A stretch of DNA of 64,000 bases from Escherichia phage vB_EcoM-RPN226: the sequence record OL770073.2. The stretch is one strand, 5' to 3'. How positions within the stretch are numbered: the stretch's first letter is position 1; each line of letters opens with the position of its first letter. The notes below the pieces were generated by a model. The model saw only the letters and a list, made by a program, of their open reading frames with translations, was not told where the DNA came from and made no database searches. Shown in pieces: positions 1 through 6,865 of the stretch. Made by a program: the position numbers and the translations under genes.

Positions 1-64
1 TTCTTCTGATTGCTACTATGATATTACTGTTTTAACGGAACAACAATATGACGAATGTAGAACT

Positions 65-796
65 TTAGCAGTATAAATATGATTCCCAACAATCTAGAGC
101 ACATCTTTTAGATATAAGTTTTCTGCTTATTCCGGTTTGACGCACAGCTTCTGCTATTGTTGGATATTCTACCCCATCTATACTTACTCTTAGATGGGGT
201 TTCTTTTTACCTCTTTGTGAGTCAGAAATTCGTTTTCTAACTTCATTGGTATGTGTCTGTCCATAATATGGATTATTGATGCCTTTCATATTAAGTGCAG
301 CGTTTCTTTCTTGGAACTTTTTGCTTATTTCTATAGCACGATCTAACCCATAGTGTTCTTCTATAGTTTTACCTTTAATATCTTTAGGTCTACCATGTTT
401 TTGCTTAAGTTCTTCTGGTGATAATTTTGAATTATTATTTTTAATTGCATTTGAAATTTTATTAAGGATTTCTTGCTTTCTTGGGTGATGAGATAAGGTA
501 TCCCCAAACGATGCGTCTGCTATATTATACCCATTTTCCTTTGAGTCATATTCATGTATCCAATAATTTTCACGTTCAATAATGATAGATTTTTCGTATG
601 GAAGTTCTTCTATGATTTTACATACGAAAGCATCTTTCCCATGCTTATTATAAGAACGTTGCAGCTTTATTGAATGATGATTTCCATTATCTAAATCTTT
701 GAAGTGTCGTTTCCATCGTTCTTCAAAATTAATTGCACTTCCTATATAGTGCTTATTGGTTTTAGTGTTTATAATAGCATATATTCCAGATTTCAT
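65..796 (-). CDS. GIY-YIG homing endonuclease, I-TevI-like, free-standing and antisense to nrdA
   Basis: 243-aa ORF; N-terminal GIYAI...HYIGS motif with downstream R, E and N catalytic residues, closely resembling I-TevI; C-terminal HTH-like tail; AGGAGA RBS before ATG. Confidence 0.85.
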   Translation of the reverse strand: MKSGIYAIINTKTNKHYIGSAINFEERWKRHFKDLDNGNHHSIKLQRSYNKHGKDAFVCKIIEELPYEKSIIIERENYWIHEYDSKENGYNIADASFGDTLSHHPRKQEILNKISNAIKNNNSKLSPEELKQKHGRPKDIKGKTIEEHYGLDRAIEISKKFQERNAALNMKGINNPYYGQTHTNEVRKRISDSQRGKKKPHLRVSIDGVEYPTIAEAVRQTGISRKLISKRCALDCWESYLYC

Positions 797-816
797 TATA
801 TTCTCCTATATAAAAT

Positions 817-828
817 TATATTTATATG
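817..828 (-). promoter_or_regulatory. T4-type late promoter (TATAAATA on minus strand) upstream of the GIY-YIG gene
   Basis: plus strand reads TATTTATA about 22 nt upstream of the minus-strand ATG. Confidence 0.45.
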
Positions 829-851
829 GGGTAACTTACTACAGAGGACTT

Positions 852-2285
852 ATGCAATTAATTAATGTTATCAAAAGTAGTGGTGTTTCTCAGAGCTTTG
901 ACCCGCAAAAAATTATTAAAGTTTTATCTTGGGCAGCTGAAGGAACATCTGTAGATCCTTATGAATTATATGAAAATATTAAATCATATCTCCGTGATGG
1001 AATGACAACTGATGACATTCAGACTATTGTCATTAAGGCTGCTGCGAATTCTATTTCAGTTGAAGAGCCTGATTATCAATATGTAGCTGCACGCTGTTTA
1101 ATGTTCGCTCTTCGTAAGCATGTTTACGGGCAATATGAGCCCCGTTCATTTATTGACCATATTTCTTACTGTGTAAATGAAGGTAAATATGACCCTGAAC
1201 TGCTGTCAAAATATTCAGCAGAAGAAATTACATTTTTAGAATCAAAAATTAAGCACGAGCGGGATATGGAATTTACTTATTCCGGGGCGATGCAATTAAA
1301 AGAAAAATATCTCGTTAAAGATAAAACCACTGGTCAAATTTATGAAACTCCGCAGTTTGCATTTATGACTATTGGAATGGCATTGCATCAAGATGAACCT
1401 GTTGACAGATTAAAACATGTTATTCGTTTTTATGAAGCAGTATCTACTCGACAGATTTCACTGCCAACTCCTATTATGGCTGGATGTCGTACTCCAACTC
1501 GACAGTTTAGTTCATGCGTTGTTATTGAAGCAGGTGATTCGCTGAAGTCTATCAATAAGGCTTCTGCTTCAATTGTTGAGTATATTTCTAAACGAGCTGG
1601 AATTGGTATTAACGTTGGTATGATTCGTGCCGAAGGTTCTAAGATTGGCACAGGTGAAGTGCGTCATACTGGTGTTATTCCTTTTTGGAAACATTTTCAG
1701 ACTGCTGTTAAATCATGTTCACAGGGCGGAATTCGTGGCGGCGCTGCTACTGCTTATTATCCTATTTGGCATTTGGAAGTTGAAAATCTTCTCGTTTTGA
1801 AAAATAACAAAGGCGTAGAAGAAAACCGTATCCGTCATATGGATTATGGTGTTCAGCTGAATGACCTAATGATGGAACGATTCGGAAAGAACGATTACAT
1901 TACTTTGTTTAGTCCGCATGAAATGGGTGGCGAACTTTATTATTCTTATTTTAAAGACCAAGACCGCTTCCGTGAATTGTACGAAGCTGCAGAAAAAGAC
2001 CCTAATATTCGTAAAAAGCGTATTAAAGCGCGTGAACTGTTTGAACTACTCATGACTGAACGATCAGGAACAGCGAGGATTTATGTACAGTTCATTGATA
2101 ATACGAATAACTATACTCCATTTATTCGTGAAAAGGCACCTATTCGTCAGAGTAACTTGTGCTGTGAAATTGCTATTCCAACAAATGATGTGAATAGCCA
2201 ACAAACCCGTTTAATCAAAATTAAGAAGTCGGATGTAGCTAAGTTTTATGAAGTTAATCCTGGCGGTATAATTCAAAGCAAATAA
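852..2285 (+). CDS. nrdA: ribonucleotide reductase large subunit NrdA, N-terminal fragment (477 aa; last 26 aa non-homologous)
   Basis: starts MQLINVIKSS; class Ia RNR large-subunit sequence through the NLCCEIAIPTNDVNSQQ active-site motif, then a 26-aa tail and stop; AGAGGA RBS. Confidence 0.9.
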   Translation: MQLINVIKSSGVSQSFDPQKIIKVLSWAAEGTSVDPYELYENIKSYLRDGMTTDDIQTIVIKAAANSISVEEPDYQYVAARCLMFALRKHVYGQYEPRSFIDHISYCVNEGKYDPELLSKYSAEEITFLESKIKHERDMEFTYSGAMQLKEKYLVKDKTTGQIYETPQFAFMTIGMALHQDEPVDRLKHVIRFYEAVSTRQISLPTPIMAGCRTPTRQFSSCVVIEAGDSLKSINKASASIVEYISKRAGIGINVGMIRAEGSKIGTGEVRHTGVIPFWKHFQTAVKSCSQGGIRGGAATAYYPIWHLEVENLLVLKNNKGVEENRIRHMDYGVQLNDLMMERFGKNDYITLFSPHEMGGELYYSYFKDQDRFRELYEAAEKDPNIRKKRIKARELFELLMTERSGTARIYVQFIDNTNNYTPFIREKAPIRQSNLCCEIAIPTNDVNSQQTRLIKIKKSDVAKFYEVNPGGIIQSK

Positions 2286-3108
2286 AGTACACAGACCGTT
2301 AATAAATAATCCATAACAAGAGGAAAAGTTATGGATTATTCTAAAATTTACAATAACCTTATTTCTAAAGCTAAGAACAGAAAATTAGATTGCTATACCG
2401 AATCACACCATATTATACCTCTGTGTATTGGTGGTTCTGATACAAAGGAAAACCTGGCAGATTTGACACCCGAAGAGCATTATATAGCTCATCAATTATT
2501 AGTAAAGATATATCCAGATAATCATAAATTGGTATTTGCCGCTAATATGATGTGTGTGTATTCTGAAGATAATATTGAACGAAAGAACACCAATAAACGC
2601 CATGGGTGGCTTAGAAGAAAATTGGCTATTTCTGTATCTGAAAATAATAAAGGCAAACCAGCTTGGAACAAAGGTATTCCGGTAACTGACGAGCATAGAG
2701 AAAAACTTCAAACAACTTGGGTATTTACTTTCCCGGACGGTCATGAAGAAATCCATAAAGGCCTAAGAGAATTTTGCGAACTACATTCACTCAATGCTTC
2801 GGCAATGTCGGCCGTATGCAAAGGCAAAAGGTCTCAACATAAAGGCTTTAAGTGTCGAAAGTTTGATAATATCTCTGAAAACGATAATCAAGAATACGTC
2901 AGTAAACCTCATCCAAAGGGATTAAAACCCCATAACTTAATTGCTGTAAAAATAAACGGTATAGAATATCAATCAATACATCGAGCATCTAAAGCTCTAG
3001 GAATATCTCGAAAAAAGGTAGAAGAATTAAATGAATATTGATTATGAATTTGTAGATGAATTTTACGAAGATGATGAGTATACAACAATACAAGTTATTG
3101 AAAACAAA
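2205..3108 (+). mobile_element. 904-bp insertion carrying an HNH endonuclease gene, interrupting nrdA between the NSQQ and GEVGLC codons
   Basis: NrdA homology stops at nt 2204 and resumes at nt 3109; the intervening DNA encodes the junction tails and an HNH ORF. Confidence 0.65.
2331..3041 (+). CDS. HNH homing endonuclease (MobE/I-TevIII-like family) inserted in nrdA
   Basis: 236-aa ORF; N-terminal YTESHHIIP...EEHYIAH HNH motif; C-terminal INGIEYQSIHRASKALGIS HTH-like tail; AAGAGGA RBS; stop overlaps start of downstream nrdA fragment. Confidence 0.8.
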   Translation: MDYSKIYNNLISKAKNRKLDCYTESHHIIPLCIGGSDTKENLADLTPEEHYIAHQLLVKIYPDNHKLVFAANMMCVYSEDNIERKNTNKRHGWLRRKLAISVSENNKGKPAWNKGIPVTDEHREKLQTTWVFTFPDGHEEIHKGLREFCELHSLNASAMSAVCKGKRSQHKGFKCRKFDNISENDNQEYVSKPHPKGLKPHNLIAVKINGIEYQSIHRASKALGISRKKVEELNEY

Positions 3109-4020
3109 GGTGAAGTGGGCCTTTGTACCCTTAGCGCATTTGTGCTGGATAACTTCGATTGGCAAGACCAAGATAAAATCAACGAATTAGCAGAAGTTCA
3201 AGTTCGTGCTCTTGATAATCTTTTGGATTACCAAGGATATCCAGTTCCTGAAGCAGAAAAAGCTAAAAAGCGTCGAAACCTTGGCGTAGGTGTTACTAAC
3301 TATGCAGCTTGGCTGGCAAGTAACTTTGCTTCTTATGAAGATGCTAACGATTTAACACATGAACTATTTGAGAGATTACAGTATGGACTCATTAAAGCAT
3401 CCATTAAGCTCGCCAAAGAAAAAGGACCTTGCGAATATTATTCAGACACTCGTTGGTCTCGAGGCGAATTACCTATCGACTGGTACAATAAAAAGATTGA
3501 CCAAATCGCAGCTCCAAAATACGTTTGTGACTGGTCGTCGCTGCGGGAAGACCTTAAGCTCTTTGGCATCCGTAATAGCACATTATCAGCACTTATGCCA
3601 TGTGAGTCATCTTCCCAAGTTTCTAACAGTACAAACGGTATCGAGCCTCCACGTGGACCAGTCTCTGTTAAAGAATCAAAAGAGGGTTCCTTTAATCAAG
3701 TCGTGCCCAATATTGAGCATAACATAGACCTCTATGATTATACGTGGAAATTAGCTAAGAAAGGTAATAAACCTTATCTTACGCAGGTAGCTATTATGCT
3801 GAAATGGGTATGTCAATCAGCTTCAGCGAATACATATTATGACCCGCAGATTTTTCCAAAAGGAAAGGTTCCAATGTCTGTAATGATTGATGACATGCTA
3901 TACGGATGGTATTATGGCATTAAAAACTTCTATTATCATAATACCCGCGATGGTTCTGGTACTGATGATTATGAAATAGAAACTCCAAAAGCTGAAGATT
4001 GTTCATCCTGTAAATTATGA
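3031..4020 (+). CDS. nrdA: ribonucleotide reductase large subunit NrdA, C-terminal fragment (329 aa; first 26 aa non-homologous)
   Basis: contains GEVGLCTLSAF, NSTLSALMPCESSSQ and a C-terminal Cys pair typical of class Ia RNR alpha. Confidence 0.9.
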   Translation: MNIDYEFVDEFYEDDEYTTIQVIENKGEVGLCTLSAFVLDNFDWQDQDKINELAEVQVRALDNLLDYQGYPVPEAEKAKKRRNLGVGVTNYAAWLASNFASYEDANDLTHELFERLQYGLIKASIKLAKEKGPCEYYSDTRWSRGELPIDWYNKKIDQIAAPKYVCDWSSLREDLKLFGIRNSTLSALMPCESSSQVSNSTNGIEPPRGPVSVKESKEGSFNQVVPNIEHNIDLYDYTWKLAKKGNKPYLTQVAIMLKWVCQSASANTYYDPQIFPKGKVPMSVMIDDMLYGWYYGIKNFYYHNTRDGSGTDDYEIETPKAEDCSSCKL

Positions 4021-4071
4021 TATAATTTGACTCACGGACGAGTCACTATCTATTAACTAAGCGGAAAATTT

Positions 4072-5250
4072 ATGAGCACAGTTTTTAATACAAATCCAGT
4101 TGATGTTTTAAAAGAACCTATGTTCTTCGGTTCAGGTCTTGGTATTGCGCGTTATGATATTCAACGCCATAAAGTTTTTGAAGATTTAACCGAAAAGCAA
4201 TTATCATTTTTCTGGCGTCCTGAAGAAGTAAACTTGATGATGGATGCTGCACAATTTAACAAGCTTCCTCAGTATCAGCAAGATATTTTTACTAATAACC
4301 TGAAATATCAATCACTTCTGGATAGTATCCAGGGTCGTGCACCGTCTGCTGTACTTATGTCATTAATTTCAGACCCAAGTCTTGATACATGGGTTGCTAC
4401 ATGGACTTTTAGTGAAACTATTCACAGTCGTTCATATACTCATATCATGCGAAATCTTTATACTGATCCATCGAAGGTATTTGATGAGATTGTACTAGAT
4501 GAAGCTATCATGAAACGTGCTGAATCTATCGGTCGCTATTATGATGATGTTCTGACTAAAACCCGTGAATGGGAAAATGCTAAAGAATTTACAGAACTAG
4601 CTAAAGAATCTCCTGATGCTGTTTTTCGTTTAAATCGAGCTATTAAACAAGAAGCCGAAGCTAAACGAGCACTAATGAAATCTCTTTACCTCTGCCTGCA
4701 CGTAATCAACGCATTGGAAGCTATTCGTTTTTATGTATCTTTCGCATGCACCTTTAACTTCCATAAGAACATGGAAATCATGGAAGGTAATGCCAAGATT
4801 ATGAAGTTCATTGCACGTGATGAGCAGCTTCACCTTAAAGGCACCCAATATATTATTCGTCAACTTCAACTTGGCACTGATGGTGATGAATGGGTTAAAA
4901 TCGCCCAAGAGTGTGAACAAGAAGCAGTTGATATTTTCATGGAAGTTAATCGCCAAGAAAAAGATTGGGCAGTTCATTTATTTAAAGATGGCGATGTTCC
5001 TGGATTAAATACAAATAGCATGTGGAGCTTTATTGATTACTTAACTGTATCTCGTATGAAACAGTGCGGTCTTCCATGCCCAATTACTGATGCTCCGGTT
5101 AAACATCCGTATCCTTGGATTCGTGAATATCTTAATTCTGATAATGTTCAATCCGCGCCACAAGAAGTAGAACTGTCATCTTACCTTGTAGCACAGATTG
5201 ATAATGATGTTGATGATAAAGTTATGATGAGTTTTAAAAAATATTTTTAA
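4072..5250 (+). CDS. nrdB: ribonucleotide reductase small subunit NrdB, uninterrupted
   Basis: 392-aa ORF with R2 ferritin-like motifs; no intron-like interruption. Confidence 0.92.
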   Translation: MSTVFNTNPVDVLKEPMFFGSGLGIARYDIQRHKVFEDLTEKQLSFFWRPEEVNLMMDAAQFNKLPQYQQDIFTNNLKYQSLLDSIQGRAPSAVLMSLISDPSLDTWVATWTFSETIHSRSYTHIMRNLYTDPSKVFDEIVLDEAIMKRAESIGRYYDDVLTKTREWENAKEFTELAKESPDAVFRLNRAIKQEAEAKRALMKSLYLCLHVINALEAIRFYVSFACTFNFHKNMEIMEGNAKIMKFIARDEQLHLKGTQYIIRQLQLGTDGDEWVKIAQECEQEAVDIFMEVNRQEKDWAVHLFKDGDVPGLNTNSMWSFIDYLTVSRMKQCGLPCPITDAPVKHPYPWIREYLNSDNVQSAPQEVELSSYLVAQIDNDVDDKVMMSFKKYF

Positions 5251-5254
5251 GGAG

Positions 5255-5277
5255 TGGGCCGCAAGGCCCATTTTATT
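5255..5277 (+). terminator. hairpin GGGCC-GCAA-GGCCC followed by ATTTTATT after nrdB
   Basis: GC stem-loop plus T-rich tract directly after the nrdB stop. Confidence 0.5.

Positions 5278-6865
<1,588 letters not shown>

Follow-up and report, generated by a model that had tools for sequence, protein, structure and literature searches.

The analysed window comprises 64,000 nt of Escherichia phage vB_EcoM-RPN226 (OL770073.2), a T4-like phage of the genus Tequatrovirus. Gene order in the window is the end of nrdA.2, a minus-strand GIY-YIG ORF, nrdA, nrdB, denA and rnlA, with nrdA being split by an HNH ORF (Table 1). The GIY-YIG ORF starts with an ATG and encodes a protein of 243 amino acids beginning with MKSGIY. 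As described in the first-pass annotation, it is inverted, lying on the strand opposite to nrdA and to a short upstream ORF fragment on whose end it converges. This fragment belongs not to td but to nrdA.2, a DUF5496 gene, whose 3' end it represents.

Table 1. Features of the region from nrdA.2 to denA, given in window coordinates.
Feature	Position	Strand	Remarks
nrdA.2 (DUF5496), 3' end	2..76	+	overlaps the endonuclease 3' end by 12 nt; full ORF visible in phage N2
Mobile cassette, 788 bp	56..843		swapped for 301 bp of cassette-free Tequatroviruses (T4, ime09, others)
GIY-YIG homing endonuclease gene, I-TevI paralogue without zinc finger	65..796	-	243 codons, intact
Second exact TATAAATA	72..79	+	in the last endonuclease codons (Y-L-Y)
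Candidate MotA-type middle promoter, TGCTTAT-N13-TATAAT	750..775	+	inside the endonuclease 5' codons, faces nrdA
Shine-Dalgarno sequence, AGGAGA	807..802	-	5 nt 5' of the ATG at 796
Predicted T4-type late promoter, TATAAATA	826..819	-	22 nt 5' of the endonuclease ATG
Conserved upstream block, GTTACCCCATATAAATAT	835..818	-	extends past the promoter octamer; candidate operator
nrdA RBS GAGGAC and ATG (852)	844..854	+	right-hand cassette junction
nrdA	852..4020	+	split by the HNH ORF
HNH/I-HmuI-like endonuclease ORF	2331..3041	+	splits nrdA after ...IPTNDVNS
GIY-YIG match	5254..5688		ordinary denA (endonuclease II)

The HNH insertion in nrdA that had been noted initially was recovered as an I-HmuI-like ORF dividing the gene into two NrdA fragments, and Rfam detected no intron around it within positions 1-6000. 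With a GIY-YIG cassette beside a gene split in this way, the locus is indeed rich in endonucleases. The tail of the N-terminal NrdA fragment is basic (QQTRLIKIKKSDVAKF...) and the head of the C-terminal fragment is strongly acidic (MNIDYEFVDEFYEDDEY...); the two ends may represent a charge-complementary interface for reassembly. The nrdA split is common to 34 phage records, the best 25 of which do not contain a GIY-YIG cassette alongside it, and the combination found in the window may thus be a new mosaic. Unlike in T4, neither a mobE/Hef-type gene between nrdA and nrdB nor an nrdB intron is present at window positions 4020-5250.

In Pfam, the protein encoded by the inverted ORF scores above the cut-offs for GIY-YIG (58 bits against 22.6, E = 1.1e-15) and NUMOD3 (28 against 20.4 bits), and reaches 21.4 bits with I-TevI_DNA-bd, which is under the cut-off of 27. 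Among solved structures, the I-TevI catalytic domain (1MK0/1LN0) is matched by residues 1-98 with E = 4e-40, and the I-TevI DNA-binding domain (1I3J) by residues 156-239 with E = 2.8e-7. The C-terminal DNA-binding region comprises a NUMOD3-type helix and a helix-turn-helix. Aligned with T4 I-TevI, the protein is 46% identical over the full length and about 70% identical within the catalytic domain. All catalytic residues are kept, namely Y6, Y17, R27, H40, E76 (E75 in I-TevI) and N91 (N90 in I-TevI), in agreement with the intact GIY-YIG module that had been claimed. I-TevI has a zinc finger in its linker that acts as its distance determinant; the four alignment columns holding the cysteines of this zinc finger are all occupied by residues other than cysteine and PF22635 is not matched. 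The strong likeness to I-TevI that had been proposed at the outset therefore holds for the catalytic domain but not for the remainder of the protein, where similarity is weak across the linker and DNA-binding region and there is no zinc finger.

Compared with its orthologues, the ORF shows dN/dS values of 0.05-0.13, in both the catalytic and the DNA-binding half, and all orthologues compared have a length of exactly 243 codons. The ORF is intact, evolves under purifying selection and encodes a GIY-YIG endonuclease of the I-TevI subfamily that departs from I-TevI itself in two of the latter's specific features, having no zinc finger and not residing in an intron. The gene is already named in GenBank, as 'homing endonuclease', 'endonuclease I-TevI' or 'intron-associated endonuclease 1' in about 26 phage records, and a literature search did not return any paper describing it. 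It is thus an uncharacterised new representative of a known class, and the record names 'I-TevI' and 'intron-associated endonuclease' are misleading.

To define the borders of the element, the window was aligned with the cassette-bearing phages Ozark and ECO07P5 and with the cassette-free phages T4 and ime09. Both junctions are sharp, falling after window position 55 and before position 844. The interval between them is exactly 788 bp long in the window and in 7/7 cassette-bearing Tequatrovirus isolates, and 301 bp long in 6/6 measured genomes without the cassette. The 301 bp displaced by the cassette consist of the last nrdA.2 codons and nearly all of nrdA.1, a DUF4326 gene. On the left, the terminal seven nrdA.2 codons and the stop codon (56-76) come from the cassette, which on the right stops directly 5' of the nrdA ribosome-binding site. 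As judged from these alignments, the cassette is a presence/absence polymorphism with sharp junctions that displaces nrdA.1, and it represents a replacement of nrdA.1 and the last nrdA.2 codons and not a simple insertion.

That the endonuclease gene is free-standing had been proposed from the open reading frames and was examined with Rfam. No group I intron was detected on either strand of positions 1-6000, even at E<=1, while the td introns of two related phages, CJY920 and N2, serving as positive controls, scored 72-76 bits. The flanks of the cassette join directly in cassette-free genomes and an interrupted minus-strand gene is absent. The gene is free-standing and not intron-encoded. Neither of the two findings that had been named beforehand as counting against this reading, an enclosing minus-strand intron and loss of catalytic residues, was made. 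The same data bear on the possibility that the ORF is encoded by a minus-strand intron or is a decaying I-TevI remnant displaced from the td intron, as might be suggested by the 46% identity to I-TevI and by the layout of late promoter, RBS and ATG common to both genes. This possibility is refuted by the intron scan, the contiguous flanks, the dN/dS of about 0.1 with constant ORF length and the coexistence of the free-standing gene with an intact I-TevI in sutha, LH2 and the contigs L009 and L011, and its probability is close to nil.

The endonuclease gene is preceded by signals for its own expression. The AGGAGA Shine-Dalgarno sequence proposed initially is borne out by orthologues of 75-93% identity (KpV477, KP179 and the contigs L008 and L010), in which GGAG is kept. 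The late-promoter-like octamer TATAAATA occurs 19 times in the window compared with 9.5 expected occurrences, and a single copy is therefore weak evidence. However, every lineage examined, down to 47% protein identity, has the octamer 22-27 nt 5' of the ATG; these are the lineage of the window and six others. Homologues showing this spacing include those of L008 and L010 (75-78% identity), L009 (56%) and the Acinetobacter phages AbTZA1 and Meroveus. The surrounding intergenic sequence has diverged and cannot be aligned outside the octamer in the Acinetobacter phage and 56% homologues. The position of the octamer is therefore not due to chance. In T4, I-TevI itself carries AATAAATA at 23 nt from its ATG. 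Together, these comparisons provide strong evidence for a functional late promoter ahead of the endonuclease gene, as had been suspected, and for promoter, RBS and ORF being an ancestral module common to this endonuclease and I-TevI. Conservation extends beyond the octamer, with the longer block GTTACCCCATATAAATAT showing no differences between the window, the Klebsiella phages, L008 and L010 despite a dS of 0.3-1.7 between the ORFs. Following the precedent of I-TevI autorepression (PMC2988022), this block may act as an operator.

Two further promoter-like elements lie within the endonuclease gene. The pattern TGCTTAT-N13-TATAAT is present twice in the 64-kb window (0.38 expected), and the TGCTTAT of the copy facing nrdA is retained in L008 and L010 despite its coding location. 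We tentatively assign it as a MotA-dependent middle promoter. A MotA-box pattern search of T4 nrdA.1 did not find such a promoter, leaving the idea that the embedded promoter replaces a lost native middle promoter unsupported. The second, plus-strand copy of TATAAATA is conserved in the Klebsiella orthologues and directed through the gene towards nrdA. It could start a late transcript, either antisense or directed at nrdA, or could owe its presence to the coding sequence.

Orthologues with at least 80% protein identity were found in 26 of 50,697 phage records: 8 Tequatrovirus records, corresponding to seven isolates, and 18 records of Klebsiella Jiaodavirus. The distribution is patchy in both genera, the gene being present in 8 of about 500 Tequatrovirus-type records and in 18 of the 154 records matching a Jiaodavirus td-nrdA query. 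The Jiaodaviruses that have the gene carry it between td and nrdA in the same inversion, where it takes the place of two small ORFs of JD18. When 5.8 billion proteins were searched, a graded series of more distant relatives was obtained, whose contigs were then checked for gene layout. The inverted td/endonuclease/nrdA layout was found in a Karamvirus-like contig (78% identity to the window ORF), in metagenomic contigs (75%, 56%, 54% and 46%) and in the Acinetobacter phages AbTZA1 (51%) and Meroveus (47%), resulting in nine contexts in all. A scan of IMG/VR viral contigs did not reveal any relatives. The remaining family members reside inside td introns (T4 and others) or just 3' of td on the same strand, and the stop codons of td and of the endonuclease gene adjoin each other in most lineages. 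The whole family is thus tied to td. A neighbour-joining tree places the zinc-finger CCCC motif exclusively in the intronic I-TevI clade, which is only a lead as the tree carries no support values. In KP179 (L004, 4784-5034), about 250 bp of unrelated extra sequence, within which a possible small ORF can be read by eye, separates the endonuclease promoter region from nrdA; by match pattern, PKO111 has the same extra sequence.

Comparison of the two genera points to a history of the cassette that differs from that of its surroundings. Between Tequatrovirus and Jiaodavirus, the endonuclease ORF is 90-92% identical and the 50 nt 5' of it are 100% identical save for one 2-nt indel, compared with 61-78% identity for frd, td, nrdA and nrdB. 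The cassettes of the window and the seven Tequatrovirus isolates are 0-13 substitutions apart and located in mosaic flanks. At third codon positions, their mean pairwise diversity is about four-fold lower in the endonuclease gene (2.5%) than in the neighbouring nrdA (10.2%). The high identity across genera and the low diversity within mosaic flanks therefore indicate recent lateral spread into different backgrounds, and these comparisons show that the cassette has moved between phage genera. When the window and the 7 isolates with the cassette were compared with the 7 without it, a small comparison set, no co-conversion tract was visible beside the cassette, either in 1350 nt of nrdA or in nrdA.2. 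This would be unusual for recent homing, unless later recombination erased such a tract.

The missing tracts would fit a resident, domesticated late protein inherited mostly vertically, for example a site-specific DNA-binding repressor or a nuclease directed against co-infecting phages. The strong purifying selection, the old syntenic position across Tevenvirinae and Twarogvirinae and the conserved promoter block, which is reminiscent of the I-TevI operator (PMC2988022), can be read in the same way. A domesticated protein is difficult to reconcile with the patchy distribution within genera, with an identity across genera that far exceeds that of the flanks and with the reduced diversity relative to the neighbouring gene, all of which argue for recent lateral spread, and we consider it quite unlikely. 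It should be noted that marker exclusion and homing are not mutually exclusive.

As the window itself begins downstream of td, the td intron states were taken from close relatives. A td intron is present in 5/7 cassette-bearing Tequatrovirus isolates. Three of them, sutha, LH2 and TB004, combine the cassette with a td intron containing I-TevI, and in N2 (L018) and CJY920 (L016) the cassette is accompanied by a group I td intron lacking an ORF (732-947). Ozark and ECO07P5 have the cassette together with an intronless td, as do the Klebsiella phages, L008 and L010. Tequatroviruses therefore display, side by side, the free-standing gene with an intronless td, with an ORF-less intron or with an I-TevI intron, as well as the I-TevI intron alone. 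An exclusive tie between ORF-less td introns and the cassette was ruled out, such introns being common in cassette-free Tequatroviruses too.

A cleavage target was sought by looking for differences that track the cassette. Among 8 Tequatrovirus sequences with and 7 without the cassette, no fixed cassette-linked substitutions exist in 1350 nt of nrdA, in nrdA.2 or in td exon 2, and the sole consistent cassette-linked difference is the replaced segment itself. None of the cassette-bearing enterobacterial-phage loci examined for gene content retains the displaced nrdA.1. Across Tequatrovirus, Jiaodavirus and Karamvirus, it is also the most nucleotide-conserved part of the interval from the td 3' end to the nrdA 5' end, with 70-78% invariant columns. 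All invariant runs of at least 8 nt are located within nrdA.1, the longest being the 19-nt CATGGTGATATAATAGCTC. As no polymorphism of td exon 2, nrdA.2 or nrdA tracks the gene, the replaced nrdA.1 is the best guess for the target. We put the chance that the endonuclease cuts within nrdA.1 of cassette-free phages, a guess made by exclusion, at slightly below even. When 22-mers similar to the promoter block were sought in the td-nrdA regions of T4, ime09 and JD18, the best matches were 15-16/22, which is within the range of shuffled sequences (15-18), and a target prediction was therefore not obtained.

In T4, nrdA.1 corresponds to positions 5172-5498 (-) of sequence L005, and homologues are present in JD18 and KMB20. 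CATGGTGATATAATAGCTC contains an extended -10-like TGnTATAAT about 50 nt 5' of nrdA, which, combined with the nucleotide conservation across three genera, suggests that nrdA.1 may have a dual coding and regulatory role.

The main alternative target is td. Under this reading, the enzyme would cut td and perhaps mobilise ORF-less td introns in trans, a form of 'collaborative homing' as has been proposed for F-CphI/psbA. In this it would resemble I-TevI, which targets td, and other, free-standing endonucleases, which cut a conserved gene next to them. Every member of the wider family examined lies in or beside td, whether within its intron, 3' of it in the same orientation or between td and nrdA in inverted orientation, which points to td rather than nrdA.1 as the ancestral target gene and keeps it a live alternative; the abutting stop codons and the td introns of five isolates, two of them ORF-less, are in line with this. 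The state of td in the cassette-bearing genomes argues against td as the target, the cassette being found with intronless td in Ozark, ECO07P5, the Klebsiella phages, L008 and L010 and ORF-less introns being common without it. No cassette-linked haplotype exists in td exon 2, and around the td intron site the Karamvirus pair, consisting of L010 with the cassette and KMB20 without it, shows no difference from -32 to +20. At this site, KpV477/KP179 differ from JD18 by two synonymous changes, which had made it a candidate. An association was rejected in view of the identical Karamvirus pair and because the apparent 'cassette' allele was found in FRZ284, a cassette-free Jiaodavirus that is 100% identical to the cassette-bearing KpV477 over 81 nt around this site. 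The DNA-binding region also bears little similarity to that of I-TevI and has no zinc finger. Overall, td as the target appears unlikely.

We favour the interpretation, at a probability of roughly 0.7, that the gene encodes a free-standing homing endonuclease that is active, mobile and expressed late. It belongs to the I-TevI lineage, and promoter, RBS and ORF together form a compact cassette. At late times of infection, RNA polymerase directed by gp55 would initiate a few nucleotides 3' of TATAAATA, producing an endonuclease mRNA with a short leader on the 'late' strand. The inversion would keep the gene outside the early and middle frd-td-nrdA transcripts, and this orientation would thereby result in late-only expression, which I-TevI achieves inside its intron by hiding its RBS. 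During mixed infection, the C-terminal NUMOD3/helix-turn-helix region would bind a site in the cassette-free allele, our guess being the highly conserved nrdA.1/DUF4326 sequence 40-100 nt 5' of nrdA. The tethered GIY-YIG domain would then introduce a staggered double-strand break, and recombination-dependent repair would copy the donor cassette using homology in nrdA on one side and in nrdA.2 or td on the other. Genomes carrying the cassette are proposed to be immune because their target has been replaced.

Both enzymes, this endonuclease and I-TevI, consist of an N-terminal GIY-YIG domain, a linker, a NUMOD3-type helix and a C-terminal helix-turn-helix, and they have all catalytic residues, a late promoter about 23 nt 5' of the ATG and the td neighbourhood in common. 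Unlike I-TevI, the present endonuclease is not intron-encoded and lies on the strand opposite to td and nrdA; it lacks the zinc finger and has a diverged DNA-binding half, with I-TevI_DNA-bd below the Pfam cut-off, and nothing points to the td intron site as its target. Similarities to F-CphI/psbA of cyanophages are also apparent: a free-standing GIY-YIG gene is located beside a gene in which some relatives have a group I intron, and ORF-less td introns coexist with the endonuclease gene in N2 and CJY920. Unlike in F-CphI/psbA, the association with ORF-less introns is not exclusive and the intron insertion site is not supported as the target.

Its intergenic presence or absence with sharp junctions and its lateral movement independent of the flanks suggest that the endonuclease works like a Seg-type free-standing GIY-YIG homing endonuclease while being a paralogue of I-TevI. 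SegF, SegG, SegH/Hef and MobE of T-even phages are likewise intergenic and patchy and spread by double-strand-break repair that replaces neighbouring DNA, as would be the case here. SegH and Hef reportedly replace small ORFs (mobC, mobE) and are not simply inserted. In contrast to the gene described here, whose target is inferred, these endonuclease genes are co-oriented with their neighbours, mostly promoterless and of known target. Among the endonuclease genes of T4, only segD runs against its neighbours, and it lacks an own promoter (PMC2988022). As a free-standing GIY-YIG gene in this orientation, segD is similar to the gene described here. segD is, however, situated between the late genes 23 and 24 without an identifiable promoter, whereas the present gene lies among early and middle genes and has a conserved late promoter. 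Given that segD alone is counter-oriented in T4 and is promoterless, an inverted gene with its own late promoter is uncommon but was to be anticipated. Promoters for downstream genes can also sit inside T-even endonuclease genes (PMC2988022), a further likeness to this gene.

The endonuclease is a natural paralogue of I-TevI in which the same catalytic domain is combined with another linker and another DNA-binding module. Engineered genome editors make use of I-TevI nuclease domains, and a relative that lacks the zinc finger and has a new specificity would become useful in practice after mapping of its target. Late-only expression that is apparently achieved by orientation and an own promoter, not by an intron, would offer a useful comparison for how endonuclease genes are fitted into the phage transcription programme. 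An inverted, td-adjacent free-standing gene might further represent the ancestral state of the whole I-TevI family, in which case the intronic I-TevI with its added zinc finger would have arisen by such a neighbour invading the td intron. We regard this evolutionary scenario as unlikely; if true, it would make the locus amenable to experiments on the assembly of mobile introns. Two subfamilies of T4-like phages have the gene in the same inverted position, yet within genera its presence is patchy, which bears on how long such elements persist and how they cycle between genomes.
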